Origin: Cyanidioschyzon merolae
Taxonomy: Eukaryota
Length of the DNA stretch: 64,000 bases
Strand: one strand, 5' to 3'
Assembly (NCBI GenBank): GCA_000091205.1
Contig: AP006485.2
Of the stretch, positions 42,701-63,070 are shown one piece after another. The position numbers and the translations under genes were made by a program. Each line of letters opens with the position of its first letter. Position 1 is the stretch's first letter. The notes beneath the pieces are model-generated. The model searched no databases. It was not told where the DNA came from and saw only the letters and a list, made by a program, of their open reading frames with translations.

Positions 42701-45361
42701 TAGCAGCAGAACCAGCGGCCTGCTGCGTACGCTCATCCGATGTCGCGTTTCAACATGTGAACGCGCTGGTGCCGTCAACGCTGTCGCATCGCCAGACCAA
42801 CTGGTGTTGCGTATTGGATGCTGGTGCTCATAGGCGAGGCGCAACAGTGCTCCTGACGATGCGTCGGTGCTTGCGTCGACAAAGACTACTGGATAAAGGT
42901 CGTCGTGTAGGTGCTCACGCGCCTGCACAACAACATCACCCGTTTGTAGCGAGATGCACGTGCGATTGGGTGTCCTCTCCAAAAGCAGATGCAGATGTCG
43001 GAGTTGGATGTCGGCGAAAGGCCTTCGATCTGAAAGCTGCAGGCTCATCTGGGTATCGTCGATCCGCAATTCGATGCGGAGACCTGCAGCATCTGGTTTC
43101 CACTGAATCTGCTGGAGCGTAGACTCCAAATCGGTGACTTGCTCATCCACGTGCTCCTGTACAAAGCCTTGAAAACGTTCACCGAGCTCCTGCGCCAAGC
43201 TAGCCGGCTCAACGACGATTTTGGATTCCTCGCGCTGCTCCGAGTCTAGCCGAGCAGAGCGCGCATCAGCCTGAGGCTGGTGCTCGGATGGTTGACACAA
43301 AGTGTCAGTAGTTGCGGGCCAAATCCGCTCCACTGCGGTGTGACGCTCTTCGCGAGCAGCAGGAGCAGCAGTCGACCTAGCAGTTGGCGTCGGTATTCCC
43401 GATGTGACGTCCACACCAGACGCTGAATCCTTTGTCGCAGGTGGCGCTGAGCTCCAGCCGAGTGTGGTGGAGATCCAGCCCAGCCAGCCGGTCGACGCTG
43501 TGGCCCCAGTTCGAGCTGTTTCTGCTGTCCCGCTGGCGTCTTCAGCGGAGCCAACGACTGCGGAAACAGCTCGACCTTGATCAACGATGCTGCGTTTGGT
43601 GTTCGCTCCTGGTGTATACTGAGGCCTTTCGGCGTTAGGCTGCAGTGGTGCTCGTCTGCTGGGGTCACGTTCAAGCGCCCTGTGGTATCGTTGTATTGCC
43701 AGACTCCGAAAGTAGCGGATTTCATCGATGCTTAACTGTTGCTCCAGAGCTGCGACTGCCTCTTCCAAGTCCGCTGGATCGTTGGCAAGAGAGAGTGCCA
43801 GAGCTTCCCGTGTACCAGTGGATGCTTGGGTGCGGTCATCAGTTTCCAGTTTCACTCGCGTGTAGAGCGATATGTAGCGTTCTTTGCGTCGATGCCAAGC
43901 ACCAAGATCCTCGAGCACGAATGGACGATACAAACTGGATACAAATGCTCGAACACAAAGAAGCGCAAATTTCCAACGGTTTCGCGCCCTACTCGGGTGC
44001 TGCTGCTCTGTCGCCTCTAGGGCCTGGATATCGCGCGGAAGCTCTGCGGATTGCCGCTCCTCCGGAGGAGGCATCCAGTTCAGATATCGTGAGCGATAGC
44101 GATTCCCAAACATCCACAGATAAGGTTCGGGGGCGTTCATGAGCACCAACAAGTCTGAGCGTCGTCGCCATCCCAACCAGGTTGCGTAGCTCTTCAGTGC
44201 CGTCACCGTCTCTACCTGAGACTGTTGCAGTTGCAAACACCAGCGTTCAACACCGAGACAGAGTGAGACTCTGGTGGTGCTGTCGCTCGTCGACTGGCCA
44301 GACGAATCGTGGGGCGCTTCTGTATCCGTCGCCAAGGTGCTTGGGTACGGTCGCTCTATTCGTAGTCCGACATACCCATAGCTGGGCCTGCACAAAAGAA
44401 AGGGTTCCATGATCTTCGCGAAACGCTCATAGTGCTCCGACAAAGATTCTCCCGCTAAGGCTGTGAATGCGGCATCCGCTGGCGTCGACTGCGAGCGATG
44501 CTGGCTCCTCATTGGTGTCAGGTAGCAGGCCAGACCATGCACCCGTAACTGTCGATCGAGGATCAAGCGCATCCTGGGTGAGGTCGCGGCCTCATTCTGG
44601 GTAGGATGATCCAGATGAGGTCGCCATTCATGACGATAATCGGGGTCTGTCGACTTATCAGAAGCAGCGGCATTGCTATCGATCAGGCTGAGTTGCCGGA
44701 GCATCAATCCGCAACTGCTCTTTCGTGTGCCTTGAGACCGCCTCCCTTCGAGCAGGTTTGTTTCCGGTTCGACAGCGATGAAGTCGACATGAATATGCAC
44801 CCGTTCTATCTGCAACTGTAGACGACGAAGCAGAAATGCAGTGGCTCTTCCAGCAAATGTCTGCAGCCAGCCGCCGTCTCGAGCGCCTCCTGTCGAGGCA
44901 CCGTTGTGCTTGCTGGACGCAGGCAGCGTCTCTTGCGAGAGCTGCTGCTCTCGTGTCGCAAGTGTCCGAGCCCAAGACTCGAGACTCTGACGCTGCTCCT
45001 CGTCGTCTAGGCGGAGAAGTTCCGCTCGAGTGGTCTGAAACGAGTCAGCGTTGTTACTGGGGGCTTCACCCGGATACCAGCACAGCTCCAGGTACACGTC
45101 TGCGATGCTGATGCTGATGATTCCATTCCACCGCGCTTGGATGGATAGCGTGCCTAGGCCAGCCCGTTGGAGTTGAAGTTCTTTGATTCCGAGATCTTGA
45201 CGCCAATAGCGCTCGACCGCACCGGTTTCGAGTTCGAGATCGTGAACCTCAAAGTAGCCCCGCTGCCCTAAAGCGATTAGGACTTGCTCCCGATCTAGTC
45301 CACCTCGAATAAACGTACCGACCTTGCTCGCAAGAAATCGATACAGCGCTTCTTCGAGCAT
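34910..45361 (-). CDS. VPS13-like bridge-like lipid-transfer protein (chorein-N family), 3483 aa
   Basis: Track ORF. The N-terminus MLEEALYRFLASKVGTFIRGGLDREQVL...GLGTLSIQARWNGIISISIADVYLEL matches the chorein-N pattern of VPS13/ATG2 (MLE...fd..ql...G.lG.L...PW..l...pv.i.i.dvYLL). The size fits VPS13. It has many low-complexity inserts: DAADDAADAAAD, (NG)n, poly-Q, poly-T/S. Confidence 0.6.
41520..41640. repeat. imperfect (CAGCAGCAT/CAGCAGCAGCAT) trinucleotide array inside the VPS13-like CDS
   Basis: Direct run seen in the sequence. It encodes a D/A-rich acidic low-complexity tract on the minus-strand frame. Confidence 0.7.
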
Positions 45362-45439
45362 CGAATTGAGTTGGTGTCAAGCAAGTGATACGTTGCTCGA
45401 CGAGTAACAGAACCGGACGACGGCCACGCACCAAACGCC

Positions 45440-46050
45440 GTTCTGAAGCAAAACGTTGTCGCCGTCAGCGGTGGACAGTTGTGGCGAGAAACTCGCTATG
45501 GACAAGACGTCCCCAACTGACGTGCAGACGCCTCCCCGCCGGTTTGGACCGGCCACCCACAACTGATTCCAACTTTTTTTTTTAATATAGTTCCACTTTG
45601 AGCGGTTGTCCCTTAAAATTCTCTCTTGTCCACTCTGGAGGTCTTCTCTCCAGCACCGCACATCTCCTCATATTGATTGCTGCGTTCAGGTCTCGGTTCA
45701 CGAACTCCATACGTCCACTGCCTCTTGCTAAACTCATCATTGCGAGCAGTCCTGGCACTCGCGCCTTCTGTTCCACGACAGTCTTGTCACCTTCTTCTTC
45801 TGCTTGGTTCATTGCTGGTCTTCTCTCGATGGTCGACGAGAAGAGAAATTTTTCTATTTTCACCGGTACCTGGCAATGGCGGCCCTCCAGAATCCCAGAC
45901 TTCCGTCTTCACACCTCTCCCTCGGTGTTTTTCCTCAAATAAACGCAATTCGACCACGTCTGCTATCAACTCGCGAGAGAGAATTTGACTACACGCACCT
46001 GGGGGTATCACGCAATTGAGCTGAGAGATTATACCAAGCGAAAACACTCC
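45440..46050 (-). mobile_element. truncated remnant of the TnpB/Fanzor-like element family: 3'-terminal conserved segment plus the RuvC-III end of the ORF only
   Basis: 45440-45700 aligns at the nucleotide level to 47838-48100, 54631-54890 and 60670-60930. Track ORF 45582..45863 (-) reads ...[44 protein letters not shown], the RuvC-III tail. No RuvC-I region follows. It ends ~80 bp upstream of the VPS13-like start codon. Confidence 0.55.
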
Positions 46051-46431
46051 GACACGATCGATGCGCTATGACGTCAGATCATCCGCTGGAAACGACGACT
46101 ACATATGAGCGCGCGCTGTACGACGAGTCTACCATCATCAACAGCGGTAATATTCAGATCACTTTGGCGGTGTATCTGTGCATTGTGGCAGCTTTACAGT
46201 CCAAGGCCGCGCGTGAAAGCGTCTCTTGTGATCCTCGATCTGAGGCAACGTATGCGTCATGTGCATGAATCGAGCGGCGATTTCCATTCAAGGCTACTCC
46301 AAACCCTAATTCCAGCTTGCGATCATGAAAAGCCTCCGCAAAGTGTTCGCAAGCTCAAAGACTGTCGTTTCCGCTAAGATTCGGCTCGTGCACGGCTGAG
46401 TCGTCATCATTCTGAATCGTATTTTCGGCGG

Positions 46432-47640
46432 CTACCGCTCACGCTCAACTGATTCCAGCATTTCCGACACATATCGCCACACCGTGTTCGGATCCTGGTC
46501 GTGCGGGCAATGACCGACAGCTTTCAGAGCAACAAATCGATCCACATGTGGATTGCGTGCAAACAGCTCTCGTCCGAGGGCGAAAGGTTCCCACGGATCA
46601 CGCTCTCCCCAGAGGACCCAGATTGCGGGCGGATCTTTTCGAGCAGTTGCAGCCATCTGTGCAATGCTTTCGACGAGCTCCTCTGCCAGCGGGCCGCGAT
46701 CATACGACGTGAACGCTAGAAATACATCCAGAGCACCGGGGCGCCTGCTTGGGGCCCGAATCCGCTCTACGAGCTCGGTACTGATGATCTGGTCCGCCTC
46801 AGGGCCATCAACAGCGTAGGCTGAGCAGAGTAACCTGCGGAGCGTCGCTGGCCGAGATACCAGAGAGAAGAAAAACTTCGCCACGGGACGAAATCCCAAT
46901 ACGCGCAACGCTAATGGAGTCGTCCAGACGCGCAGACCCCGTCGTTTCTTATAGTGCAGCTGGCGAAGAGACGGATTCAGACACATAACTGCCCGAATAC
47001 GCGTGCCCTGCATACCAGGATGCTCTACTGACTGGCGCAGCATGTCGCAAGCAGCTTGAAGTGCGGCAACACAACCGATTGAATTTGCAACGAGAACAAC
47101 ATCACGCTGTTGCGAAATCCCGGTATCTGACGCGGTCACCACAACAGTATTGATGAAATGAAGGATCTGCTGTGCCCAGCTTTCAAACGTGTACGAAAAT
47201 GTCGGAGAGCCAACTTTGCCGTCGCCTTGCGTCGTGAACAGCGGTGGTGGCATATCAGCATCACCAAAGCCCAGCAAATCCAGCGCATACGCGTCGTAGC
47301 CCGCCTCCGAAATGATGTTGAGCATCTTCTGCCAGTGAAATGCCCCAGCACCGAAACCGTGAATGCATATCACAGCAGGCCTTGCCGGTGACGCCGGCGG
47401 AGCTGCAGGTTTCGCCCAGTACGTACAACGGAATCTTTCAAACAAGTAATCTTCTTGCCGAAAACCTGGCGGCAACGGTAGGAGCGGTTGAACACTCCTT
47501 AAACATTCCTCGAAAACACCACCTACATTCGTAGTGGGGTCAGCGCTCAAAGTAGAGTCGAAGTCACGACGGCCCGTTGCTCTCAGAGCGCTGTTCACCG
47601 AGTGCCCGTTTCCTTCATTTACGTCAGCCTTAACACCCAT
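46432..47640 (-). CDS. alpha/beta-hydrolase fold protein
   Basis: Track ORF 46432..48060 (542 aa). The hydrolase core reads AVICIHGFGAGAFHW...LVANSIGC...AVGHCPHDQDP. The start is placed at the internal ATG 47640 (MGVKAD...), because the upstream 140 codons read through the conserved end of the adjacent repeat element and recur verbatim at 54627..54860. Confidence 0.65.
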   Translation of the reverse strand: MGVKADVNEGNGHSVNSALRATGRRDFDSTLSADPTTNVGGVFEECLRSVQPLLPLPPGFRQEDYLFERFRCTYWAKPAAPPASPARPAVICIHGFGAGAFHWQKMLNIISEAGYDAYALDLLGFGDADMPPPLFTTQGDGKVGSPTFSYTFESWAQQILHFINTVVVTASDTGISQQRDVVLVANSIGCVAALQAACDMLRQSVEHPGMQGTRIRAVMCLNPSLRQLHYKKRRGLRVWTTPLALRVLGFRPVAKFFFSLVSRPATLRRLLCSAYAVDGPEADQIISTELVERIRAPSRRPGALDVFLAFTSYDRGPLAEELVESIAQMAATARKDPPAIWVLWGERDPWEPFALGRELFARNPHVDRFVALKAVGHCPHDQDPNTVWRYVSEMLESVERER

Positions 47641-47764
47641 AACGGCTCCAGTGCCTCCAGGCCGAGGGAGCTGACGCCTTCTAGCACTCAAGAGCGAGCG
47701 TCGCGGCCGTTCGTTACTTTTCGAGTGAAGCAGCACCGGTGCCAGGCGACAATGACCGAAGCGC

Positions 47765-50150
47765 TCACCCGTACAAACCTCTGAAACGTACCCTGGGTGG
47801 ACACTCGCACCAACACAAAACATCTTTCCAAAGACAAACGTTGCCCCCGGCCGTGTACAGTAGTGGCGAACGCGCCCTAGGCAAGGGGTCTCCAACTGAC
47901 GTGCAGACGCCTCCCCGTTTTTTTGGACCGGCCACCAACGTCTGCTTCCATTTTTTCTCATATAGATCGACTTTGAGAGGTTGTCCAATAAAATCCTCTT
48001 GTGTCCAGTCTGGAGGTCGTTTCTCCAGCACCGCACATCTCCGTATATTGATAGCGGCATGAAAATCTCGGTTCACGAACTCCATACATTTCGTGCCGTT
48101 GGGAGCTGTACTCACCAATACGAGTAACCCTTGAACTTTCGCCTTCCTTTCCAGTTGCTCCTCCGCCAGCGGTCCGTACTTTTGCAATTTCCTCAGCGCT
48201 CTTCTGGCACTTTTCCATCTCCACCCTCTGAAGCGTGCAGCCCAGTTCCTGGTATGTATAGGACGTCCGGAACTCATATACAGGTATCGTAACGAGACGC
48301 CGGGCGCACTCCTTGTACAGCTTCGTCGCTGGAGCTGGCGTAGTTCCTTTTCTGTTCTTCCAGTGCCTTGCTCCATACGCTTCTACGAGCTTCTGACGGT
48401 CATCCTCCTTGAGGGCGCTCAACTGATTGAAACAATTCGCAAACGCCCGCTGCTTCACACCGTATAGATTCATTCGCAGACGAGCCCACCGGGGCTTTCT
48501 ATACTCCTCCCACAGCGCATCCCAATGGGCAACACGAAATTCCATGAATTTCCGAAAAGCTTCACAGACCGCTCCGCGGCTCGTCGCCTCGCTCAAAGCT
48601 TCCAGGTGATGCTTTATTCCTGCATTCCACGTAACGATTATCATCCTTGCATTCACTACAACGGATTCTCGATAGTATCTCGCTCTCGAGAACCTCAGCA
48701 GACGCATGTCTTTCTGGCGTAAATTACCGTCCATGCCATCTTCCGCACGCTTCGGTGCTGCGATGGTGATGATATTCGTGTTCCCAGGATCCGCGCCAAC
48801 CACAATGTCTTTATCCTGCACTTCCTGTGTGGCAGGATCCGCCTCTTTCTTTCCTTGATGCTTCGTCGCGTCAACCATAAAGTCGTTATCCTGCACATTC
48901 TGTTCGGCAGGATCCGCCTCCTTCTGACCTTCATCCTTCACCGCGCCAACGACACGGTCGTTATCCTGCACTTTCTGCATCACAGGTTCCGCCTCTTTCT
49001 CTTTTTCATCCTTCACCGCGTCAGCGACAAAGTCGTCATCCTGCACCTCCTGTGTCGCAGGATCCGCTTCTTTGATTTTTTAATGCTTCGCAGAGGGCGA
49101 AGCGAAAGGCACAATCGGACGGTCCACTTTCAAGCGCCGATAGTGTACATACAAGGTTACTCCATCGGTCTCGATCAACGCAGTGAATACCTTTTGGCTT
49201 CTCACTTTGAGCCGTTTGAAATTGAAGATGTTCTTCAAGTACGTCGCCCGGTTTTCACCGGTGAAGTCATCCCTGCTAACAGTGAACACTGGACTGATCT
49301 CCTTCATGATGCCGTAAAACACGTCCGAATCGATATTCACGAAACGTGACTTGATGCTGCACATTGGAACCACGTTGAAGCGCTTACCCATTAGGAAAGC
49401 CTTCCGTCTCTCCTACTCTTCATTTGTCTTTTCGCTCAGGTTCATCTCCGCTTCGCGTTCGAGCTCCGGGTCCAAGAACACAGAATACCGTACGACGATG
49501 CGATAGTATCTCCCCTGATCCTTTTTCAACTCTGATATCTTTTCTGTTGGATTCACCAGCCCCAAGATTGCACGGCGCTCTTGTATAGCCGCACGGATCA
49601 CAGATGCTTCATTCGTGCTCCTGCGTGACGTCTTCTTGTCGACAAATTCGACCTCATCTTCATGCTTGCGATCTTTCGTTATGCCATTGATAGTCGCCTA
49701 TATTCATTTGAGAGAGCTGCCTGGGTAGAGTGCAAAAACGGCGCGTATCATGAAACGTTCGAGTTTCACGATCACGTGACTCTCCAGTTTCGTGATGTAC
49801 TTCGTCGCCCCTTATATGTAAACATTCGAATCACCCCTGTATGGAGTACTGTTGAAGCTGTAGAGGGGATGTTTTTCGTAAAGGCCATGCACTAGCACAT
49901 TTTCCCTCCGCGTTTCCGCTGTTCCAAGCATCAGGTATCGAATAAAGGTCTCGTCGAATAACTCGTCCAGAATCTCGACCGTTTCCATGTTCGCGACGTC
50001 TTCGTACATCTCCCTCGCCAAATGCATCAGTCTTGACGACGCCTTGAAAATACTCTTGGAGTACGAATCGAAACGTTTTTCGATAGCGTCTCGCAACTTT
50101 TCCCTGTACGGATCCTTGATGTGTCCAAGAAGAAAGATTTTCACCTCCAT
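47765..50150 (-). CDS. TnpB/Fanzor-like RuvC-nuclease ORF, copy A. It is interrupted into segments 49812..50150, 49413..49601, 49080..49391, 47958..49046 and 47765..48376; intact versus pseudogene status is unresolved.
   Basis: RuvC-I is [18 protein letters not shown] (cf. TnpB vGIDlG.kn.a). Further on are ...[20 protein letters not shown] (the TS + Cys region preceding the zinc finger), then [25 protein letters not shown], which is the canonical RuvC-III RDxNAAxNI. The N-terminal ~430 aa ([27 protein letters not shown]...) have no recognised domain. The track's 203-aa segment reads out of the element into flanking DNA, so the natural stop is probably near ...LYEKKW, as in copies C and D. Confidence 0.5.
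47838..48040 (-). ncRNA. candidate omega-RNA / right-end scaffold of Fanzor-like copy A (the conserved 3'-terminal non-coding segment)
   Basis: About 200 nt downstream of and overlapping the RuvC-III coding end. It is conserved at the nucleotide level in all four copies, including copies C and D where the protein frame has already terminated or shifted. It contains a conserved hairpin ctggag-gtcgttt-ctccag and a conserved gacgtgcagacgcctcccc core. The position, 3' of the TnpB-like ORF and abutting the element end, matches where omega-RNAs lie. Confidence 0.25.
48780..49075. repeat. 66-bp tandem repeat x4 inside the Fanzor-like ORF (copy A). It encodes reiterated (V/N)QDND(R/F/I)(V/M)V(G/D)A(V/T)K(D/H)(E/Q)GQKEADPA units ending in the RuvC-I motif.
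   Basis: On the plus strand the unit reads gtcgttatcctgcac(a/t)ttctg...aggatccgcctc(c/t)ttct...tcatccttcaccgcg.... The same array is present at ~55580..55875 in copy B. Confidence 0.7.
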
Positions 50151-51022
50151 CTCATTCTACAGTCATCTTTCCCGCCGCCTTCGACGTAGGGCCTCTCGCT
50201 TTCAGTTCTTCTTCTCTCCTGTTTCTTCTGGACTCGGCACTGCTTTTTGTTTGTCTCTAGCGGCCGGCGACCCCGGCCCTCCAGGAGCGTCGACTTGCTT
50301 TTTCATAGCTTTCCGTTTTTTAGTTTTTTCTTGAAAAACAACGCTCTGTGAACCCTTCTGTTATATACTGCGAAAAACACTTGACTAGACTTGTTTGAAG
50401 TTTCAAACAGAAACGAACTTAAAGCCTGTACTTGGCTACGACCTGAACGGAAATACAACTTTTTACAGATGAACAACACGCTACTGATCCCAATCGCGTT
50501 TCCCTTCAACGAAGGCATACGCATCGTGTCAGTTGATTCCCCGATCTCCCAGATGCGATTACCGAGCGCGATGCGTGCGCCTCGCGAGACACCACGCCGA
50601 TCGATGAAGGACACGTGCCTCAAGCCCATAGTGCAAAGAAACAGAGCTCGCTCGGGGGCACGCCTGCGCTATCGCTTTTGGCGCGAAACGCGAAATCGAA
50701 ACCGCGCCTGCAGGGATCGTCTCGAACCGTTTCTCCTTCGCCGTGATCATCGATTGCCGCGGATTCGAGGCATGGTGCGGGGGAATTTGAATCGCTCGTG
50801 GGCTCTGTCGTTGCCGCTGCTGGACGTAAATATTTTTTTAGAGTTGGTGTTGTTCAACGGACGGCTGGGAACGGGCTCTTTCTCGTTCACGACACTAAAT
50901 ATTTTCCATCAAAAGAAGTTTTATACAAAGGTTTCCAAAGTATAATATCAGGATTTGCTACGCTCATGGTATTTTTGGAGAGCAATATACGTAGAGGCCG
51001 CCCAGGAGGTCAAGGCTTTCGG

Positions 51023-51215
51023 ATGAAGCCTTCGCTATTTATTATTTGTTTCATACTTTGCAGTGTGTTCGCGTCTCTCGTACGGGCAGCGACTGTGACA
51101 CCTACACCGACTGCGACTGCGACACCGACTGCGACACCGACACCTACACCTACACCTACACCGACACCTCCATCGGCTACGACACCGACACCGACACCGA
51201 CACCTCCATCGGCTA

Positions 51216-51252
<37 letters not shown>

Positions 51253-51275
51253 TCCATCGGCTACGACTACGACTA

Positions 51276-51306
<31 letters not shown>

Positions 51307-53416
51307 TCCATCGGCTACGACTACGACTACGACACCGACTGCGACACCGACTGCGACACCGACTGCGACACCGACTGCGACACCGACTGCGACACCGACT
51401 GCGACACCGACTGCGACACCGACACCTACACCGACTGCGACACCGACTGCGACACCGACTGCGACACCGACTGCGACACCGACTGCGACACCGACTGCGA
51501 CACCGACTGCGACACCGACTGCGACACCGACTGCGACACCGACTGCGACACCGACACCGACACCGACTGCGACACCGACTGCGACTGCGACTGCGACTGC
51601 GACTGCGACTGCGACGGCGACTTCTACGGCAACTCCGACACCGATTGCGACGATGACTCCGACAATTACATCATCGCCAACGATTACTGTAACAGCGTCT
51701 CCAACGACAGTGACGATGACACCGACGATGACTCCAACTGCAACAACGTCACCAACAATCGTGCCGACGACGATTGCCACCTCGATTGCGATATCCGTTC
51801 AGAATCTTTCTCTTTGTTTGGCCGTGGCGACGGATTTGCAGAACGATCTCGAGGCTCGCTTCACGGGCCTGGTAGTGAATGTCAGCGTGACTGATAACTG
51901 CGACACGGTCTTCGGTTCGGGCACATCAAGGCGCCTCGCCACCACATTAGACAAGAGCAATCCTCGTCTGGAACGAGCATTGGTGCGCACGTCGGGCGGC
52001 AGTGTTGTGACCTATGTGATTAAGATCTCAGGAGACACATCCCTCGCCAGTGATGCGCAAAGTGTGCTTCAAACTTTCACCGACCAGCTTTCTACAATTC
52101 TACCCTCTGGTGCGACACTTGCTATTATAACCCCGACACCGAGTGCAACGCCAACACCAGTTTGCACGAGTGAAATCTGCGGTTCTCCGGGCCAGTACAC
52201 AAACCGGGACGCTTGCGAGCAAGTCGGGTGCTGCTTTAACTCCCAGACGAACGCGTGCACCCTGAAGAGCGTCTCAGCGGCCTGCAGCGCTGTTCCAGTG
52301 ACGCAGCGCGTCCCCTGCGGCTGGAGCTACATCTACCCCGACGAGTGCACTGCGATACCGGGATGCTGCTGGCAGCCAACGGCGAACGGCATCCTGGCAC
52401 CCTGGTGCTACTACGACATCAACCATGCACCGCAGGCCTCTGTAGCGCTGCAGGAGGTGCAGGCACCGGTTCCCCTCTGCCCGTCACCGGGAGCGCAGCG
52501 CCAGCCGTGCGGCAACGCGGGCATCAACCAGTTTACGTGCTATGCCCAGGGCTGCTGCTACGACTCGCAGGCGCAGAACCAGTGGGTGCAGAACGGCAAG
52601 CAGCAGAGCGACTTTGCGTCGAACCCGTACTGCTTCCAGCCCGAGAAGACGTGCGCGGTGGGCGAGTTTGAGCGCCAGCCGTGCACGAACGCGGTGAATC
52701 AGAACCAGCAGCTGAACAATAACATCAACAACAACCAGTTTGTGCGTCTGCTGAACACGCTTCTGTACGGAGAGCAGCACGGGACGCAGCGCACGAGCTA
52801 CTCGCCGCAGCAGTGTCTGGAGGCTGGTTGCTGCCTGGGGCTCAGCAACGAGTGCTTCCAGCCGATGACCGAGTACGTGTGCCAGACCTACGGGTATGTG
52901 TCGAACTCGCTGAGCGGCACGACCGGCAACGTATCGAACTCGAGCTATATTCCGTGTGGCCCGGAGTGCTGCAACGCCGAGACGCAGAACTGCACGTACA
53001 ACCCGTTCAGCAACAACAACAACCAGCAGCAGCAGCAGCAGCAGCAATTGCAACAACTGCAGCAACAACAGGTGCTGCTGCCGTCATTCTGTGTGTGCAA
53101 GGACCCTACGAAGCAGTGCGGGACGTACCTGATCCCTTCGGATAACCTTGTGAACAAGGTGCGTTGCTGCCGCGCTGACGAGGAGTGCATCAACAACCAA
53201 TGTGTGGTGATTAGTCCAACACCGACTCCGAGTCCCGTGGCTGTGACAGCGACACCCTCTGCGACGGTGTCTGCAACAGTCTCTGCGACAGCTTCTGCGA
53301 CGGTGTCTGCGAGTGCATCAACGAGTGCATCAGCGAGTGCTTCAGTTTCAGCCTCTGTGTCGACGTCTGCGAGCGCCTCGGAATCAGCGACATCTTCAGC
53401 TCCACCGACTGCGTGA
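51023..53416 (+). CDS. secreted mucin-like protein: signal peptide, long Thr/Pro/Ala tandem-repeat region, then 3-4 trefoil (P-type)-like Cys-rich modules and a C-terminal Ser/Ala/Thr-rich tail
   Basis: Track ORF 50798..53416. The start is placed at the internal ATG 51023 ([29 protein letters not shown]...), which gives a classical signal peptide. Cys modules include [45 protein letters not shown], matching the trefoil C-x9-R-x2-CG...C...GCC(F/W)...PWC(F/Y) pattern. The other modules are [32 protein letters not shown] and [31 protein letters not shown]. Confidence 0.6.
51100..51660. repeat. coding tandem repeat: 12-nt (accgactgcgac) and 6-nt (acaccg) periodic array encoding (TPTA)n/(TP)n
   Basis: Direct periodicity; for example gacaccgactgcgacaccgactgcgacaccgactgcgac runs for >250 nt. 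Confidence 0.85.
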
Positions 53417-54564
53417 GCGAACGTTTCAACTGTTAATTTGCCCACAGTCTAGATCACGTCTATGCTGATCCTCTGTTGCGACAATATTCCACTCATGTTC
53501 ACAAGACCCGAGAGTACGAATGAACGAATGCGTTAATGTGGATATTTGTGCGCGGAGTGTCATCTGAGGTCCTCTTCGGGAACTTACATTCAGAGATCTG
53601 ATGAACGGAAAGAATGGACCAGAATTTGCTTTTGGAACGTAAAGGAATGATTACCTATGCCTATGAGCTTGCCCCCGATGATAGCCTTGGTGGTAATGGC
53701 GGTATCTTGGTACCCTTTCTTCTCTTTGTAGTCGGAATACGGTTTCCGAGTTGCATGTAGCGAGTATGTCTGCAGTAGAGCGTCTGGAACTGTTTTTTTA
53801 GTTTCGTTGTACTTGAGCACATTCTAGTCCTGAGGAGAGGTTCTGGAGCAAGTTTGACTCGATCCGTACAACCGCAAATTTCACCAAAATACGATTCCTC
53901 TTGAGGAAAAGCTGGTATTCGTGACGCCTGCATACGGGCTCCGGCTCCGCTTGGCACGAATGGAAGCAGGGCCGCCAGCCTCACAGCGCACTTATAGCTC
54001 TAACATTGAAAGTGCTTATAGCTTGTTCTGTCGGTCGAGGCATCCTCTCGATATATTCACCACTGTTGCCTACCGTTGCTCGTAGGCTACGTCCATAAAA
54101 CCGTCTGAAGTGTTGTGCTGATTTCCGGATTATGTTTATGTCTTGTACACTAGAAAAAAACGAGAACGAAGTGGTGGTAAGCCGTGAAGACGTAGATGCG
54201 CAGTTACCGTTACTCGGTCCAGAGGCACATCATGCCAGGCAGTCACATCCTGAGACGAGCTGTACGCTATGTAAGCATTACCACAGCACCTTGAGCACAG
54301 CTGGAGGCATTCTAGAAGCGGCCAGTATCGATTCTAAACAATTGATCTTGTTCTATATCATTGCAAACAAATTGGTAAACGGATCCGTTGCTAATAAATG
54401 GACACAGGGCCCTCGGAAGATAGATAAACGACAAGGCAGCGGATGATGTATCGAATACAGAAGAACTCGAGTTGCCCATTTTCCACATTTTCTGTCACAT
54501 CAGTCCTGTTACAGCCATGGCAGCAATATCTTCACGAAAAGCATCAACTATTACCACATATACT

Positions 54565-56950
54565 CTAGGTACTCTTCGCAAATACGTTCTGAATAAGCGA
54601 CGTGACGCGCCCGCACCGAACGCCTCTCAAAAGACAAACGTTGCCCCCGGCCGTGTACAGTAGTGGCGAACGCGCCCTAGGCAAGGGGTCTCCAACTGAC
54701 GTGCAGACGCCTCCCCGTTTTTTTGGACCGGCCACCAACGTCTGCTTCCATTTTTTCTCATATAGTTCAACTTTGAGAGGTTGTCCAACAAAATCCTCTT
54801 GTGTCCAGTCTGGAGGTCGTTTCTCCAGCACCGCACATCTCCGTATATTGATAGCGGCATGAAAATCTCGGTTCACGAACTCCATACATTTCGTGCCGTT
54901 GGGAGCTGTACTCACCAATACGAGTAACCCTTGAACTTTCGCCTTCCTTTCCAGTTGCTCCTCCGCCAGCGGTCCGTACTTTTGCAATTTCCTCAGCGCT
55001 CTTCTGGCACTTTTCCATCTCCACCCTCTGAAGCGTGCAGCCCAGTTCCTGGTATGTATAGGACGTCCGGAACTCATACACAGGTATCGTAACGAGACGC
55101 CGGGCGCACTCCTTGTGCAGCTTCGTCGCTGGAGCTGGCGTAGTTCCTTTTCTGTTCTTCCAGCGCCCTGCTCCATACGCTTCTACGAGCTTCTGACGGT
55201 CATCCTCCTTGAGGGCGCTCAACTGATTGAAACAATTCGCAAACGCCCGCTGCTTCACACCGTATAGATTCATTCGCAGACGAGCCCACCGGGGCTTTCT
55301 ATACTCCTCCCACAGCGCATCCCAATGGGCAACACGAAATTCCATGAATTTCCGAAAAGCTTCATAAGACCGCTCCGCGGCTCGTCGCCTCGCTCAAAGC
55401 TTCCAGGTGATGCTTTATTCCTGCATTCCACGTAACGATTATCATCCTTGCATTCACTACAACGGATTCTCGATAGTATCTCGCTCTCGAGAACCTCAGC
55501 AGACGCATGTCTTTCTGGCGTAAATTACCGTCCATGCCATCTTCCGCACGCTTCGGTGCTGCGATGGTGATGATATTCGTGTTCCCAGGATCCGCGCCAA
55601 CCACAATGTCTTTATCCTGCACTTCCTGTGTGGCAGGATCCGCCTCTTTCTTTCCTTGATGCTTCGTCGCGTCAACCATAAAGTCGTTATCCTGCACATT
55701 CTGTTCGGCAGGATCCGCCTCCTTCTGACCTTCATCCTTCACCGCGCCAACGACACGGTCGTTATCCTGCACTTTCTGCATCACAGGTTCCGCCTCTTTC
55801 TCTTTTTCATCCTTCACCGCGTCAGCGACAAAGTCGTCATCCTGCACCTCCTGTGTCGCAGGATCCGCTTCTTTGATTTTTTAATGCTTCGCAGAGGGCG
55901 AAGCGAAAGGCACAATCGGACGGTCCACTTTCAAGCGCCGATAGTGTACATACAAGGTTACTCCATCGGTCTCGATCAACGCAGTGAATACCTTTTGGCT
56001 TCTCACTTTGAGCCGTTTGAAATTGAAGATGTTCTTCAAGTACGTCGCCCGGTTTTCACCGGTGAAGTCATCCCTGCTAACAGTGAACACTGGACTGATC
56101 TCCTTCATGATGCCGTAAAACACGTCCGAATCGATATTCACGAAACGTGACTTGATGCTGCACATTGGAACCACGTTGAAGCGCTTACCCATTAGGACAG
56201 CCTTCCGTCTCTCCCAATCTTCTTTTTTTCTTCACTCAGCTTCATCTCCGCATTTCGCTCGAGTTCTCGGTCGAGAAACATGAAATAGCGCAGAATAAGA
56301 CGATAGTATCTTTCCTTATCTTTTTTCAACTCTGATGTCTTGTCTGTTGGATTCGCCGGCCCCAAGATTGCACGGTGCTCTTGTATAACCGAATGGATTA
56401 CAGAAGTATCATTCGTGCTGTCGTTAAACGCCTTCGTGTCGACGAATTCGACTTCACCTTCATGCTTGCGATCGTTCTTGATGCCGTTGATAATCTCCCA
56501 TATTCCTTTGCGAGAGATACCCGGGTACAGCGCAAACACGGCGCGTATCATGAAACGTTCGAGTTTCATTGTCAAATGGTTCGTCAGGTTCGTGAGGTTC
56601 TTCATCTCCCCATAGTCGTAAATACTCCGGTCCCCCTTGTATCGAGTACCCTCGAAGCCGTAAAAGGGATGTTTTTCGTGGAGGGCATGAACCCGCTCGT
56701 TTTCCTCCCGCGCTTCCACTGTTCCAAGCATCAGGTATCGAATAAAGGTCTCGTCGAATAACTCGTCCAGAATCTCGACCGTTTCCATGTACGTCACGTT
56801 TTCGTACATCTCCCTCGCCAAATGCATCAGTCTTGACGACGCCTTGAAAATACCCATGGAGTACGAATCGAAACGTTTTTCGATAGCGTCTCGCAACTTT
56901 TCCCTGTAAGGATGCTTGATATGTTTAAGAAGACAGGCTTTCACCATCAT
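54565..56950 (-). CDS. TnpB/Fanzor-like RuvC-nuclease ORF, copy B. It is interrupted into segments 56192..56950, 55881..56192, 55362..55847, 54767..55345 and 54565..55176, with one extra break relative to copy A at ~55350.
   Basis: The same RuvC-I, TS/zinc-finger and RuvC-III ([15 protein letters not shown]) motifs as copy A. The N-terminal 252-aa segment is continuous here, whereas it is broken in copy A. Confidence 0.5.
54631..54835 (-). ncRNA. candidate omega-RNA / right-end scaffold of copy B
   Basis: Identical to the copy-A 3'-terminal segment except for a few substitutions (tagttcaac vs tagatcgac). See 47838..48040. Confidence 0.25.
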
Positions 56951-57270
56951 CTCGTCGTACAGTCGTCTTTCTTGCCGCCTTCGACCTAGGGCCTCCCCCG
57001 TCGGTCCTTCTTCTCTCCTGTTTCTTCTGGACTAGGCACTGTTTTTTGTTTTTATTTCTGGCAGCAGGCGACCCTGGACCTACGGAATCGTCGACTTGCT
57101 TTTTCATAGCTTTTCTTTTCATTTTTTTTGTGTGAAAAAGAACGCTCCTTGAACCCTTCTATTATATACTGCGAGAAATCAATTGAATATGTTTACTTGA
57201 GGGTTGAGACACAATCGAACTGGAAACTATGATTTGTTACGACTTCCACGCAAATACAGCTTGCCCGTTA
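54631..57270 (-). mobile_element. TnpB/Fanzor-like element, copy B (~2.6 kb)
   Basis: It is near-identical to copy A over 54631-56200. Track ORFs 55881..56192 (-) and 55656..56150 (+) are identical to their copy-A counterparts. The 5' region (56200-57270) is ~80% identical to copy A. Confidence 0.6.
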
Positions 57271-58418
57271 GAACATCAAGAAAACGTGTCGTCACGGTCG
57301 CGTTTCTCTTCAAAGGCGACAGATGCGTCGTGTCTCGTAAGTGCCATACTTGGAGATGCACGTATCAAGCGCGCCATACAGGAAAAAGGACAGTGACCTA
57401 CGATTTACAAGAAACGATATAAAATTTTTTCCCGCTCTACGATAAGCGTTTAAGGGGAAACAGATCGCCGTATTATCGGAAGCTTATGTTCGAGGCGGTA
57501 GGTCCCGCGAGCCGGTCGAGTCTACCGGGCTAGAGCTCGGTATCCCTCTTAAGTGGCTGCTGCCGCTGCTGCTGCTGCTGCTGCAAGACCTGCGCAGCTC
57601 GTTCACAACGCATTTTATCCTGAGACTATGCACAGGATGCTGCGTTGGGCCTCGCCCTGGTCGCAGTGGAACCCTAGTATAGCGCTTCGCGCTGCCGTAG
57701 GTAGTGGGTCTGTCTGCCCATTTTGCATGTTTCCAGAATGACAAATAGCCCTGATTCCGTTTCAGGTGAATCATCCTCCCAGAGGACGCCCTTATTGGTA
57801 TGGCAAAGCCGTTCTGTCTCTGTACAGCACCTGCTTGAGCGGTATAAGCGCAACAGCGGGTGCTCACAACAGGCTCGGCGCTCGATAGAACATACGAAAC
57901 GACCAGTGTATCAGAGAGGAAGTATGGGTAATGGGACTTGAGGACAGGTGCACTATGACAGTGATATCCCCGGAAGCCATTATCCGTTCCGAATTCTGGG
58001 ATCCATGGGCAATGTAAACGTTTTTTCATCAAAAAGAAAAAACGCCCCGAGGCGGACTCGTCATCGAGACGCACATCCCTCTGGATCGAATCTCCGGAAG
58101 GCGCTTCTGGGCGATCGCAAAAGCCCTCAAGTGCATCTTTGTATTCTCAACGGATAGCATGCTTTATTCGGAGCGCTCAGTCTCGAGCGTTCCCTCTAAC
58201 TTTAAGCAATAGCTTCGTAGATCAGACAGCTGTGTTGTCAAAGAGCACTGTACCTAGTTTTGGCGAGGTCTATAGTGCTGGAGAACAAAACGATCACGGG
58301 TTTGTAGCGATCTCGGCACCAGTGCTAGAAACAACCCTGCACTGGAGCTCGTGCGATCTAAAACCTGTAGTCGGACTTTTTAGAAGATCTGTCTGGCAAG
58401 GAAACAAATCGTGGAACT

Positions 58419-59495
58419 GTGCTCTTTGGAATGACGTCGGGGATCGACGAGGCAGCGGCTGAGCTTCAGGGAAGTCTCTTTGGGGAGGTCTCGCCTGCGA
58501 TCGACTCGCCGGGTGCGGCGCTTGCACGTTCGTACCCCGTCCGCATCACCGTTGTCGGAGCTGGTGACGTTGGCGTTGCTTGCGCCTATAATATTTTGAC
58601 CCGAGATATTTGTAGTGAGCTGGTACTGGTGGACGTTCTCAAGGACAAACTCAAAGGTCAAGTTATGGACTTGCAGCATGGAGGTGCGTTCTACAGCACC
58701 CGCATCCGGGCTGCCGAGTCCTACGAGGATACAGCACATTCGGCAGTATGTATTATAACGGCAGGTGTGCGTCAGCGGCCCGGAGAAAGTCGTCTTGAGC
58801 TCATGGATCGCAATGCCGCATTGTTCAAAGGCATTATTCCGCCCCTGGTGCAGTATTCGCCGAACACAATCCTGTTGATTGTGAGTAACCCCGTTGATCT
58901 ATTGACACATCTAGCGTGGCAGATGAGTGGCTTGCCTCGCGAACGTGTGATTGGCTCAGGGACATATTTGGACTCTTCGCGTTTCCGCACACTTCTGGCG
59001 CAGCGGCTGGGCATCGATACCGCTTCCGTCCAGGCCATGGTACTGGGCGAGCACGGAGACTCCTCGTTCGTGTACCGGAGTGGTATTACGGTTGGTGGCG
59101 TGCCGTTGCGAACATGCTTCGAGCGCATGACCGACGCTGCGAGCGCGTCCACAGCATTCTATGATCTGGTGAAAGGTGTCCATCAGCAAGTTGTAGCCGC
59201 GGCTTACGAGGTCATTAAGCTGAAAGGCTACACCAACTGGGCCATTGGCAGCGCTGTTGGAAGTATCGTTACAACGATTGTGCATGATCGGCGCAAAGTG
59301 CTGCCAATAACGACGCATGCGGGCTCGATGCGAGGCCTCGAGTCGGCGGATGTATTCTTGTCGTTGCCTTGTGTGCTAGGTCGGAATGGTGTCGTTGAAG
59401 TACTACAAATACTGCCGTTCATGGAAAGTGACGAGAAAGAAGACCTCCAATCCAGTATAGAGGCACTCCAGAGCACGCCGAAGAAAGCATCTTGA
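58419..59495 (+). CDS. ldh: L-lactate dehydrogenase (LDH/MDH superfamily, LDH-type active site)
   Basis: Track ORF of 358 aa. The Rossmann motif is VRITVVGAGDVGVACAY. The substrate loop is ICIITAGVRQRPGESRLEL. The catalytic His is in MVLGEHGDSS, the LDH signature GEHGDS. A ~35-aa N-terminal extension means the true start could be an internal Met. Confidence 0.8.
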   Translation: MLFGMTSGIDEAAAELQGSLFGEVSPAIDSPGAALARSYPVRITVVGAGDVGVACAYNILTRDICSELVLVDVLKDKLKGQVMDLQHGGAFYSTRIRAAESYEDTAHSAVCIITAGVRQRPGESRLELMDRNAALFKGIIPPLVQYSPNTILLIVSNPVDLLTHLAWQMSGLPRERVIGSGTYLDSSRFRTLLAQRLGIDTASVQAMVLGEHGDSSFVYRSGITVGGVPLRTCFERMTDAASASTAFYDLVKGVHQQVVAAAYEVIKLKGYTNWAIGSAVGSIVTTIVHDRRKVLPITTHAGSMRGLESADVFLSLPCVLGRNGVVEVLQILPFMESDEKEDLQSSIEALQSTPKKAS

Positions 59496-60669
59496 GCATG
59501 TTGCCTGCGCATGGTAACGCGTTGGATGCGGATCGTTTACAGGGACGTTAATCAAATGCCTCGTCGAAGTGCGGGCTCTGCACAAGCGTGCTCGGTCTGT
59601 ACTCAAAATAAGCGGATGGACAAGGAGGACTGAACTATGCTGGATACCTATGCCAAACTGGTAGGTCTTGGCACCGTAGAAAAGGTGTGGAGGGGAGCGT
59701 CCGTAGCCATCTCGGCGAGCTTGTTTCAAATGGACAGCATTGCTGAAGGACCAGGTGGCACCAGAATTGCAGCTGCAGAGTAGCGTTCGCCTACTATCAT
59801 CATTGAAACCTGCTAGTCGTGTCATGGATACCGGACGTGCTGGAGTTCGCATCCGCAACAGCGAACAAGGATCAAATCAACTGACTCAAAATTCTCCAAA
59901 GCGATGCGTGGATGAAAGCTGGCGAAAGTTGCGGGTCTGGTACGGCATAACGTACGCTTACCCGGATGCCGATATGTATCGCGCCTGACCCGAGATACCC
60001 TGGTTCAGGTCAACCATTCTAAACCGCAGGATAAAAGTATGCCATGATTTAACGTTCACTGATGTTGGCTGGACGGCATCGCAACGCTCCACGAACCTGG
60101 GCGCGGCGCCGAAGGCTTAGTTTCCGAGTATGACCGTGACAGACTTTGCTCTATGCGTACGGATCTGGAAAACACGAGTCGAAAGTGTGCATCAGCACGC
60201 ATGGGCGACGAATAAAACCCTTAAAGCGACGTGCGAACAGTGACCTAACGATGCAAGTGGAACGAACCGAATACCCTGAGGTAGGTATGATGGCACAGCT
60301 TCTGCCTTGAGAGCAGCTGCACAAGCGCTTCAGTGCGGTAAAGCCGAAATCGTGCCGAAACGTCCGAGTCGCGTCAGCGCTTCTAGTGAACAGGAATGTG
60401 CCTCCAGCTTCTCTGACGTTCCTCTCGCGTCCCAGCAATTCTGGTACAAAGTTTCGCTCTATGCAGCACAGGCGCTGATGCAGCGCTCCTTCGGAAGCCC
60501 TGCCTTCCGCAAACTTGCACCGAGACGTTCCGTACGCAGCTATCGTGGTTATGCTTCAAAACCGGAACGGTATTGCAGTGTCTTGGAAGCGTCGGCTAGA
60601 GCTTCTGAGACCGAAACGTCTCGTAAGACCACCGCACCCGACGACAACAAACATCTTTCGAAACAAAAA

Positions 60670-63070
60670 CGTTGCTGCCGGCAGTAGACAGTACTGGCGA
60701 GAAACTCGCCCTAGACAAGAAGTCGCCAACTGACGTGCAGACGCCTCCCCGTCTTTTCCGCCCGGCCACCTACTGTGGGTACCATTTGTTCTTATATAGT
60801 TCCAGTTTAAGAGGTTGTCCAACAATGGACTCTCGTGTCACCGCTGGGAGCTTTTTGTCTATTCCCGCACATCTCCGTAGATTGATTGCAGCGTTAAAGA
60901 CTCGGTTCGCGAACTCCATACGTTTCTTGCGGTTGACAGTCGTACTTACTAATGCAAGTAGTCCACGAGCTTCTCCCCTCCTTTCCATTTCCTCTCCCGT
61001 CAGCTGTCCCTTACTTTTTTATATCATCAGGACTCCACTGGCACTTTTCCATCTCCATCTTCTGAAGAGTACATCCCAACTCGTGGTGTGTATACGATGT
61101 TCGGAACTCACCCACAGGTACCGTAGCGAGACCCAGTGCGCACTCCTTGCCCATTCCTGCCGTTGGAGCTGGTGGAGTCCCTTTTTTTCGGAGCCCAGCT
61201 CCCTACACCATATGTAACAACGAGCCTCTGACTTGATCCTATTTCAAGGCGTTCAATCGATTGAAAAAGCTCGCGAATGCGTGATGCTTACCACGGCACA
61301 GATTCATACGCAAACGTGCCCAGCGGTGCTTTGTATACTCGCCCTACAGCGCCACGGAATGAGCAACCCCAACTTCCAAAAATTTCAGAAAAGCTTGAAT
61401 GTCCGCTCATCGGCTCGTCACCACGCTCAAAGCCTCCAGGTGATCCTTCATTCCTACATTCCACGTAACGATCTTCTTCCTTGCATTCATTATACCGGAT
61501 TCTCGATAGTATCTCTCTCTCTCGAAAACCTCAGCAGAAGCATATGTTTGTGGCGTAAGGTGCCGTCAGTGCAATCTTCCCTTCGCTTGTGAACAGCGAT
61601 GGTTATGAGATTCGTGCTCCAGGGACTAAGGCCGACGCCAAAGTGGTTTTCATGGGGCTTATACGTTCCATAGCCCGTCAACCTGTGTTCGTTCTTCGGC
61701 AAGGGCCGTAAAGAAAACGGGATAGGACGAGCTGCCTTCAACCGCTGATGGTGTACACATATGTGCGCCACATCGAGATCGATTGTTCCAGTGAATAACC
61801 TTTTTTTGGCCGGTTCGGGACACTTGAAATCGAAGATATTCTTCTCGTAGGCGTCCCGATCTTCACCGGAGACCTATTTGTTGATTACATCGAGCTATGG
61901 ATAGATCTCTATCCTGAAGATGCAAAAGGACTATGGGGTCAATATACACAAAATGTGACTTGAACGCGCATAACCGACCGACATTGAAGCGCATCTGGAG
62001 AAGACTTCAATGTCGTTTCTCGCACTCGTCTTTTTTTCCACACTCAGCTCCATGCCGACCCTGCGATCGAGGTCTCGGACCGAAAACATGAAGCAGGGCA
62101 GGATAAGAGAGTAACAACTCTCTCCGTCGTTTCTCATATCCGAGAGTTTTCTCTTGGGTTGACATGACCCAAGACCGAACGATGTTTTAGAATAGTCGCG
62201 CGAATTACAGAAGCATCATTCATTATCCTGCGTGATGTCCTCTTGTCGACGAGTCTGATCTCCTGTTCATGCTGGCGATCGTTCTTCATACCATCGATGA
62301 TTGCAAGCATCCCTTCGCGAAATAGGCCATGGTACAGCACAAAGGCGACGCGTATCATGAAACAATCGAGGTTTGCCATTTTATGGTTCCTCACATTCAT
62401 AAGGCACCTCTTTGCCCTGTATTCGTAAATGTCTGCGTCACCCCTGTGTTCAGCACGGAAGACGAGGAATTTGGCGTAATTTTTGAGGAAGGCATGCACT
62501 CGCTCACTTATCCCCGATGTTTTCCCATTAAAAACAATCAGGTAGTTGATGAAAGTCTTTTGGAAAAATTTTTCCGGAAACATCACTTTCGCGATAAGCG
62601 TTACGTCCCGATGCAGGTCGCTGTCCAAATGCCAACGTCCTAAAGAGAAGATACAAACACACCCGGCGTACGAACCGACACGGTTTCTGATAGCGTCCCG
62701 CAACAATCAGTCGTACGGATCATTGATATGTTGGAGAAGATAAGATTCCACCACCATCTTGTCGTACAGAAGTCACAATTTCAGCCTTCGATGTAAGGCC
62801 CTCCCATGTTGCTTCTTCTTCTGTTCCTGACCCTCTTCGCTAAGCACTACGTCTCGTTTCTTTCTGACATCCGGCAGCACCGGCCACCCCAAACCCACAA
62901 CCTCCAAATACATAAGTCTAATTTTTGTTTTGGGAGAAAAACTCATTGGACGCTTCTGCTTTGAACGGCGAAAATAAGTTGAATACCCTTACTTAATGAT
63001 TGAAACGCCATTGGAGCCAAAACTATACTTTGCTACGATTCGATCAGAAATACAAGTGGCCCCGATAGAG
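60670..63070 (-). mobile_element. diverged member of the same TnpB/Fanzor-like element family, copy C (~2.4 kb, degenerate)
   Basis: Track ORF 60770..60988 (-) reads ...RMEFANRVFNAAINLRRCAG...GQPLKLELYKNKW, a RuvC-III tail with the catalytic D replaced. ORF 61490..61771 (-) contains GLSPWSTNLITIAVHKRREDCTDGTLRHKHMLLLRFSRERD, aligning to the RuvC-I region [44 protein letters not shown] 62134..62706 (-) aligns to the N-terminal domain at ~40% identity. The 3'-terminal ~200 nt (60670-60900) are ~75% identical to copies A and B. Confidence 0.5.
60770..62706 (-). pseudogene. degenerate TnpB/Fanzor-like ORF of copy C (multiple frame breaks; catalytic motifs eroded)
   Basis: See the copy C mobile_element feature. 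Confidence 0.45.

Follow-up and report, generated by a model that had tools for sequence, protein, structure and literature searches.

CMe-1A copies and their Fanzor1 protein

The window, the whole 64,000-nt stretch of DNA analyzed here, comes from Cyanidioschyzon merolae. An exact-sequence look-up found three of three window proteins on record, two of them with C. merolae 10D entries: the 3483-aa ORF matches CYME_CMC182C (BAM79097.1) exactly, and the L-lactate dehydrogenase is BAM79100.1. The ORF pieces and coordinates listed in an earlier note on this DNA are real, and the pieces belong, as that note had proposed, to two copies (A and B) of one element on the minus strand.

To identify the element, the consensus sequence of CMe-1A (supplementary file 2 of PMC3627910) was compared with the window by blastn. 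CMe-1A is a Fanzor1 family described by Bao and Jurka (2013, Mob DNA 4:12; PMC3627910), with a 3169-bp consensus and about 150 copies. The supplementary table row for "CMe-1A (3169)" gives 150 copies and "734 (1)", that is, a CMe-1 protein of 734 aa in one exon. Its authors regard it as an old family with non-autonomous-like behavior and mainly degraded copies. Four copies, all on the minus strand and within one 18-kb stretch, were located in the window and thus in the nuclear genome of C. merolae. Copy B (54621-58030) is full length (consensus 2-3169, 81-87% identity) and carries three extra 75-nt repeat units. Copy A (47824-50530) is truncated at its 5' end (consensus 687-3166). Copy C (60655-63146; consensus 672-3166) is older and strongly decayed, with 75.6% identity, and copy D (45461-45776) is a 3'-terminal fragment (consensus about 2830-3147), of which the blastn alignment spans 2897-3147.

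Copies A and B are CMe-1A elements. The identity of the four copies to the consensus (75-87%) compares well with the published value of about 80% for copies in the same host genome (PMC3627910), and at the protein level the stitched A/B sequence shows 72-77% identity to published CMe-1. In copy A, residues 4-430 of the CMe-1 protein align by tblastn in a single frame (50297-49017). The loci are individual degraded members of an already known family, and finding them is ordinary. The first ~670-690 bp of the consensus are missing from copies A and C, and with them copy A lacks the 5' module that resembles TE-N2_CMe; the 5' module of copy B agrees with the published relationship to that element. 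Like the family, the window copies have no terminal inverted repeats: none of at least 60 nt was found in 46000-59000, and a local comparison of the two consensus ends gave a top score of 11 (shuffled mean 7.2, shuffled maximum 13). A possible target motif in the 5' flank of copy B, similar to the element's 3' end, was discarded, as it is absent at the orthologous position of two related contigs (L002 and L003). Nothing essential separates A and B from CMe-1A; they carry about four 75-nt units against one in the consensus. These 3.8 tandem units of 25 aa each lie in frame on the minus strand just ahead of the RuvC-I motif (48791-49073 in A, 55592-55874 in B), and their number varies in the family, from one in the consensus and copy C to 3-6 in other copies.

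The assignment to Fanzor, already made in the earlier note, is correct, given the consensus match and the profile matches to Fanzor1 structures. A profile built from 44 diverse relatives matched the PDB chains 9cf0 (Parasitella parasitica, E = 4.7e-21), 8gkh (Spizellomyces punctatus, 9.8e-13) and 9cer (Guillardia theta, 3.2e-07), with aligned DPG (RuvC-I), DEFRT (RuvC-II) and NRD.NAA.N (RuvC-III) motifs. Copies A and B, the consensus and the homologs all carry the motifs GADPGNTN, V(D/Y)EFRTS and NRDF(N/H)AAINI in canonical order, and these align with the matching motifs of 9cf0 and 8gkh; in A and B, RuvC-III is not in frame with RuvC-I and RuvC-II. The profile of distant representatives was the only one to detect these structures: a profile of 26 close homologs and phmmer with the stitched protein found nothing in the PDB. 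No significant TnpB or Fanzor match was obtained with Pfam and NCBIfam for the four ORF pieces, or with Pfam for the stitched protein, P0001 and P0007. The RuvC core, including the part past the frameshift site read in the consensus frame, has a dN/dS of 0.28, and by sequence comparison CMe-1 is a real coding family.

Intact members of the family would act as RNA-guided nucleases, by analogy with Fanzors of other species, which are described as RNA-guided DNA endonucleases that take their guide RNA from the element's 3' end (PMC10530073). The likeness to the solved Fanzor1 proteins (profile E-values of 5e-21 to 3e-7) extends from the three RuvC motifs to a conserved 3'-terminal block after the ORF, a position that in other species encodes the Fanzor guide RNA. 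Unlike those proteins, the C. merolae copies in the window are pseudogenes, and the stretch between RuvC-II and RuvC-III shows no CxxC zinc-finger pairs. The bacterial TnpB proteins of IS200/IS605 and IS607 elements, presented as the ancestral family of Fanzor, share the split RuvC nuclease and have a guide RNA overlapping the gene's 3' end (PMC3627910, PMC10530073). The family differs from them in its eukaryotic host, in a long extension of the N-terminus that includes a basic KKRK stretch, and in the lack of significance of the Pfam and NCBIfam TnpB models (best Cas12f1-like_TNB, E = 0.23).

Lesions in copies A and B

The reading frames were aligned to two references, the consensus and a 752-aa ORF free of interruptions (L001:6001-8259), which lies on a related contig and runs collinear with A and B. 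All breaks in the two copies are small lesions at codons read as sense in these intact relatives, and the nature and position of each can be read directly against their single-exon structure. The ORFs of A, B and C are all interrupted, and none retains the 734-aa single-exon coding sequence. About 13 lesions were counted in A and about 10 in B, many of them substitutions to stop codons; measured against the consensus ORF, copy C has 7 in-frame stops and 10 indels that shift the frame. The earlier note had judged at least one of A and B to be decaying; decay is confirmed, and both copies are dead.

In copy A, the region 50150-47958 is a single frame broken by in-frame stops only. The ATG at 50150, the 103-aa ORF (49391) and the 362-aa ORF (49046) share this frame (offsets of 759 and 345, both multiples of three). 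The stops are TAA 49814-49812, TGA 49706-49704, TAG 49700-49698, TAG 49415-49413 and TAA 49082-49080. The TAG at 49413-49415 is specific to copy A and reads TGG in L001 and TCG in the consensus. The split of the N-terminal domain at 49601-49812 noted earlier is thus a real interruption, but one made by three nonsense codons with no change of frame. The true start codon lies 52 codons further upstream (50306 in A, 57107 in B), in a stretch with additional lesions that in A include stops at 50204-50202, 50165-50163 and 50159-50157.

Copy B is broken differently at its 5' end. Its true ORF start (57007-57107) is an ATG at 57107-57105, equivalent to the consensus start, and is followed by indels of +2, +1, -4 and +2 nt at codons 18-34. 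At codon 295, one nucleotide is missing from an A7 run (56229-56223), and because of this the N-terminal part and the 103-aa segment are in different frames; the same 1-nt deficit occurs in copy C. The stop near 55350 that had been reported to have no counterpart in A is real: it is a TGA at 55364-55362 produced by a copy-B-specific 1-nt insertion at about 55366 (GGTCTTATGAAG against GGTCTGTGAAG in A), at a site through which 42 of 45 homologous ORFs read. The claim that the 103-aa segment is out of frame with both of its flanks in both copies does not stand. The segment shares the downstream frame in both, with one TAA between, and relative to the N-terminal part it is out of frame in B, as claimed, but in frame in A.

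Three lesions are common to A and B, all on the minus strand. A nonsense TAA (49080-49082 in A, 55881-55883 in B) replaces a GAA (Glu) codon of the consensus and L001 within KHEEKKEADP, and is read through by 29 of 45 homologous ORFs. A +1 frameshift at codon 633 lies between RuvC-II and RuvC-III (48180-48183 in A, 54980-54983 in B); where A and B have GCAAAAGTAC, L001 has GCAAAGTAC and the consensus GAAAAGTAC, and an uninterrupted ...EDIKKYGPLTEEQ... is read here in 28 of 45 homologous ORFs. The out-of-frame overlap of the RuvC-II and RuvC-III segments, correctly described for both copies (47958-48376 in A, 54767-55176 in B), exists because of the one extra base in GCAAAAGTAC. The third lesion, missed at first reading (about 47952 and 54752), is a -1 deletion at codon 710 (47950-47956 in A, near 54752 in B and near 60786 in C), so that neither the native TAG stop nor the last 25 codons stay in frame. 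Either older states of the subfamily or repeated slippage in A runs would account for the deficits at codon 295 (B and C) and codon 710 (A, B and C).

Copy C is also frameshifted between RuvC-II and RuvC-III. A single ancestral event for A/B and C was rejected after explicit alignment with mismatch counting, in which the extra base precedes GTAC in A/B but follows GTA in C.

Origin of the shared lesions

The distribution of differences between A and B provides further evidence. Their sliding-window identity, difference list and alignment delimit a near-identical tract on the minus strand (47830-49396 in A, 54630-56197 in B), which is 99.4% identical: over its 1567 nt there are 8 substitutions and 1 indel, and it includes 830 nt without a difference. 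Upstream of it, in the 5' 1 kb, identity is only about 82% (76-90%), and the switch, at 49397-49414 in A, is sharp. The copies are in direct orientation at a distance of 6.8 kb and have unrelated flanks. All three shared lesions fall inside the tract, whereas the 5' parts are only ~82% identical; sharing therefore most likely reflects recent homogenization of dead copies, probably by gene conversion.

A and B are thus, with high confidence, dead CMe-1A copies with decayed ORFs that came to share lesions through homogenization of their 3' parts, likely by gene conversion. An intact element carries one intron-less ORF, whose 734-aa product belongs to Fanzor1 among the TnpB-like RuvC nucleases. 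The ORFs of A and B were lost by ordinary neutral decay, through nonsense substitutions and indels of 1-4 nt, several of them in homopolymer runs. A RIP-like mutation bias was considered and rejected, as the stop-creating changes mix transitions and transversions. The 3' 1.57 kb would then have been homogenized recently, most likely by ectopic gene conversion, when the shared lesions already existed. The unconverted 5' third would have kept the lesions specific to each copy, and the insertion at 55366 in copy B would be later than the homogenization. The sharp A/B mosaic suggests ectopic gene conversion, and homologous recombination is efficient in the C. merolae genome.

The earlier note had offered inheritance of the breaks from a dead copy as one explanation, and this part of it fits the three shared lesions, all of which lie in the 99.4% tract. 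In its strict form, A and B would have been inserted separately from dead or chimeric masters that already carried these lesions, with no local exchange. The near-identical tract does end at the element's 3' end between unrelated flanks, the -1 deletion at codon 710 is present in copy C too, and CMe-1A is described as old, non-autonomous-like and mainly degraded (PMC3627910). One master should, however, have given uniform similarity, while the 5' 1 kb differs by ~18% and the 3' 1.57 kb by 0.6%; A is 5'-truncated and B full length; and the 6.8-kb spacing in direct orientation favors ectopic conversion. Separate insertion is thus unlikely, even if the identity pattern of a tract that reaches the 3' end would fit insertion of recombinant dead elements equally well.

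Spliceosomal introns, whose removal would yield one Fanzor ORF in both A and B, had also been proposed for the shared breaks. Fanzor genes are described as having acquired introns in intron-rich hosts (PMC10530073), and around each lesion there are ~100-200 GT...AG intervals of a suitable length class, including a 37-nt GTACGG...GGAAG interval, found by eye, that adjoins the +1 site. This 37-nt candidate, at first plausible in both A/B and C, was dismissed, as intact ORFs encode YGPLTEEQMERR across the stretch, and 5' splice sites close to the consensus are lacking in all candidates around the +1 site. The search for frame-restoring introns that had been suggested gave a negative answer: among GT...AG intervals of 20-400 nt, every candidate restoring the frame removes at least 8-15 conserved consensus codons. 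The consensus protein is single-exon, and each break differs by one base from the intact copies. The earlier note had raised the possibility that all genomic copies share the breaks; A and B do share them, but 27-29 of 45 homologous ORFs (27, 29 and 28 at the three junctions) read through each one, carrying the conserved residues across. In copy A, two of the three places proposed need no change of frame, and the whole host genome has only 27 introns (PMC4829280). Splicing of A and B is not supported by these comparisons, and introns as the cause of the shared breaks are extremely improbable.

The remaining alternatives fare no better. Recoding is frequent in transposable elements, and the notion of a programmed structure could apply to the RuvC-II/RuvC-III break as a +1 ribosomal frameshift which, with readthrough of the TAA, would still allow the protein to be made. 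A frame change of the same sign does occur within ~6 nt in A/B and the divergent copy C, beside an A-rich run. Intact relatives (28 of the 45 homologous ORFs) and the consensus nevertheless have no frame change there, and the extra bases of A/B and C sit at different positions, indicating two independent events and no conserved signal. Rescue at one site is impossible with 7 further stops in A and 4 further frameshifting sites in B, which leaves recoding with a negligible probability. Sequencing or assembly errors in intact genes could be suspected where indels fall in homopolymer runs, as several do. There is hardly any chance of this either: the lesions (~13 in A, 10 in B) include many substitutions to stops, the shared lesions are identical at two separate loci, and the flanking genes are intact, among them the 3483-aa ORF that exactly matches its deposited protein.

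Interruptions common to two copies are no sign of introns if the copies share a recently homogenized tract. The loci should be labeled as CMe-1A (Fanzor1) pseudogene copies and not as intron-containing genes, a matter of little import beyond annotation.

The conserved 3'-terminal block

An alignment of seven copies revealed a block, conserved in all of them, at the 3' end of the element (minus strand; 47824-47960 in A, 54621-54760 in B), which overlaps the end of the ORF. Its position makes it a candidate for a Fanzor guide RNA (fRNA/omegaRNA) scaffold or for a transposon end. An Rfam search of 45000-64000 returned only sub-threshold chance matches and no family match for the block. RNAalifold on five sequences gave a consensus fold of -26 kcal/mol, in which one of 29 pairs covaries. 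That the blocks of dead copies may yield guide RNAs for the genome's few intact Fanzor1 proteins in trans, with ectopic conversion among clustered copies such as A and B homogenizing the module, is quite unlikely. The block is of minor interest as a candidate guide RNA of a red-algal Fanzor1.

Four CMe-1A copies of Fanzor1 identity

The window carries the element in four minus-strand copies, against the two recognized in the earlier note: copy A (47824-50530) is 5'-truncated, copy B (54621-58030) is full length, copy C (60655-63146) is far more degraded than either, and copy D (45461-45776) is a 3' fragment. A search with the protein stitched from A and B retrieved 45 homologous ORFs from metagenome contigs (54-78% identity), and an exhaustive search returned 1232 relatives. 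Pfam, NCBIfam and direct PDB searches gave no significant match for the element's proteins. When 44 diverse relatives were combined into a profile, it matched three solved Fanzor1 proteins (9cf0, E 4.7e-21; 8gkh, E 9.8e-13; 9cer, E 3.2e-07), and these alignments cover the DPG, DEFRT and NRD.NAA.N motifs. The anatomy is also that of Fanzor1 elements: one long ORF includes a split RuvC domain and, at its N terminus, a basic stretch, and a conserved 3' block comes after it.

One Fanzor1 family, CMe-1A, has been described in C. merolae; each of its approximately 150 copies shares about 80% identity with a ~3-kb consensus, and the supplementary table entry "CMe-1A (3169) ... 734 (1)" denotes a 734-aa protein in one exon (Bao & Jurka 2013, PMC3627910). 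The consensus, taken from that supplement, was aligned to all four copies at 75-87% identity, spanning positions 2-3169 in B, 687-3166 in A, 672-3166 in C and 2897-3147 in D, and the stitched protein shares 72-77% identity with CMe-1 as published. The copies are thus members of the published family. A and B are ordinary degraded members that nothing sets apart, and their breaks are already accounted for by the published work.

All four copies fall within 18 kb (45400-63200), with intact host genes between them: an alpha/beta hydrolase, a Thr/Pro-rich secreted protein and an L-lactate dehydrogenase. Given a family of about 150 copies and a genome of 16.5 Mb, this represents a local concentration. 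Small CMe-1A-related fragments also occur at 63633-63707 (consensus nt 108-182, 81% identity) and 27223-27327 (a 35-aa match to CMe-1 residues 580-614).

Reading frames and lesions

The ORF pieces listed in the earlier note do exist, but their frames had been misread. In copy A, where frame changes were claimed, the proposed start at 50150, the 103-aa ORF and the 362-aa ORF (RuvC-I/II) all lie in one frame, broken only by in-frame stops (49814-49812, 49706-49704, 49700-49698, 49415-49413 and 49082-49080), and tblastn of the CMe-1 protein covers residues 4-430 in one single-frame HSP. The 103-aa segment, thought to be out of frame with both flanks, is in frame with the downstream piece in A and B, one TAA lying between; its shift relative to the N-terminal part holds only in B, owing to one base missing from an A7 run (56229-56223). 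The out-of-frame overlap of the RuvC-I/II and RuvC-III pieces is real and common to both copies, and results from one extra base in GCAAAAGTAC (48183-48180 in A, 54983-54980 in B). The B-specific stop is likewise present, at 55364-55362, after a 1-nt insertion at ~55366.

Lesions were scored against the consensus ORF, whose true start precedes the ATG chosen earlier by 52 codons (A 50306, B 57107). Copy A has a compensating +1/-1 pair (codons 27 and 30), a +1 indel at codon 633, a -1 indel at codon 710, and stops at codons 35, 48, 50, 165, 201, 203 and 298 in addition to the shared TAA. Copy B carries four indels within codons 18-34 (+2, +1, -4 and +2), further ones at codons 295 (-1), 506 (+1), 633 (+1) and 710 (-1), and the shared TAA as its only stop. 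Copy C has ten frameshifting indels and seven stops. The 1-nt deficits at codon 295 (B and C) and codon 710 (A, B and C) both lie in A-rich runs and may reflect either subfamily ancestry or recurrent slippage.

Decay is the correct reading of the breaks; introns, proposed earlier as one source of them, are not supported. In a four-way alignment, each A/B break is a single-base difference at a site where the consensus and a related contig copy, L001, have a sense codon: TAG at 49415-49413 (A) against TGG in L001 and TCG in the consensus; the shared TAA (49082-49080 in A) against GAA in intact copies; GCAAAAG at the shared +1 site against GCAAAG (L001) and GAAAAG (consensus); the A7 run of B, one base longer in intact copies; and the one extra base of B at ~55366. 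The L001 copy (L001:6001-8259) is an uninterrupted 752-aa ORF; it is collinear with A and B, to which it is 82% identical at the nucleotide level. Among the 45 homologous ORFs, the junction of N-terminal and middle segments is read through in 27, the TAA site in 29, the RuvC-II/III site in 28 and the B-specific site in 42. Between copies, dN/dS is 0.28 across the RuvC core, including the stretch past the frameshift read in the consensus frame, so this stretch is coding rather than intronic. GT...AG pairs of fitting length are abundant by chance (~100-200 per lesion), and every candidate around the breaks would delete at least 8-15 consensus codons. The C. merolae genome has only 27 introns (PMC4829280). 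The frame changes at the RuvC-II/III site do not form a conserved recoding signal: the frame change of C near codon 635 comes from an extra base downstream of GTA, whereas that of A and B lies upstream of GTAC, indicating independent events.

Shared lesions in a mosaic pair

By their identity pattern, A and B are mosaics. Over 1567 nt (49396 to 47830 in A) only 8 substitutions and one indel separate the two copies, with 830 nt free of any difference; upstream of 49397-49414 identity is only 76-90%, no closer than that of either to L001. The flanks of the two copies show no relation. The near-identical tract contains all three shared lesions. The copy-specific lesions lie outside it, apart from the B insertion at 55366, whose origin must postdate the tract. 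Ectopic gene conversion explains this pattern most simply; it would have acted between two already dead copies in direct orientation, 6.8 kb from each other. A weaker alternative is that recombinant dead elements were inserted independently as A and B.

Element ends, repeats and neighbouring ORFs

All four window copies, whatever their reading frame, share a conserved 3'-terminal block of ~130 nt (minus strand; A 47824-47960, B 54621-54760, C 60655-60790, D 45461-45590), including GGGAGGCGTCTGCACGTCAGTTGG and a hairpin GGCG(AG)...(CT)CGCC. RNAalifold predicts a fold, with negligible covariation (one covarying pair in five sequences), and the block matches no Rfam family. Other Fanzors encode a guide RNA at this position (PMC10530073), and the block is a candidate guide-RNA scaffold or transposon end.

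Copy B has the CMe-1A 5' module (57260-58030), which is reported to be 95% identical to a separate element, TE-N2_CMe (Bao & Jurka, PMC3627910). A and C both begin at consensus ~670-690, right after this module, pointing either to two structurally different versions of the element or to repeated truncation at one point. Directly 5' of B (58031-58050, minus), the flank GGGGCGTTTTTTCTTTT closely resembles the consensus 3' end GCGTTTTTCTTTTGAAAGGCG; no such sequence is found in the 5' flank of the related copy on contigs L002 and L003.

An in-frame 75-nt (25-aa) tandem repeat lies directly upstream of the RuvC-I motif (48791-49073 in A, 55592-55874 in B) and duplicates the motif's start (DNDFVVDA...). 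There is one unit in the consensus and C, four in A and B, and three to six in metagenome copies; the number differs even between L002 and L003, orthologous loci from different samples.

Long uninterrupted genes surround the copies, including a 3483-aa ORF; exact-sequence look-up identified this ORF as CYME_CMC182C and the adjacent L-lactate dehydrogenase as BAM79100.1, both of C. merolae strain 10D. Between A and B, an 872-aa Cys-rich secreted-protein ORF contains a long 12-nt (Thr-Pro/Ala-Thr) tandem array (51010-51780) that has no relation to the A/B breaks. The mechanical ORF list contains an artefactual 542-aa ORF (46432-48060): a frame left open at the 3' end of A continues into the downstream alpha/beta-hydrolase gene. 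The commonest form of that hydrolase in the protein collection is a 402-aa version starting MGVKADVNEG, and 542-aa calls are also found in metagenome annotations.
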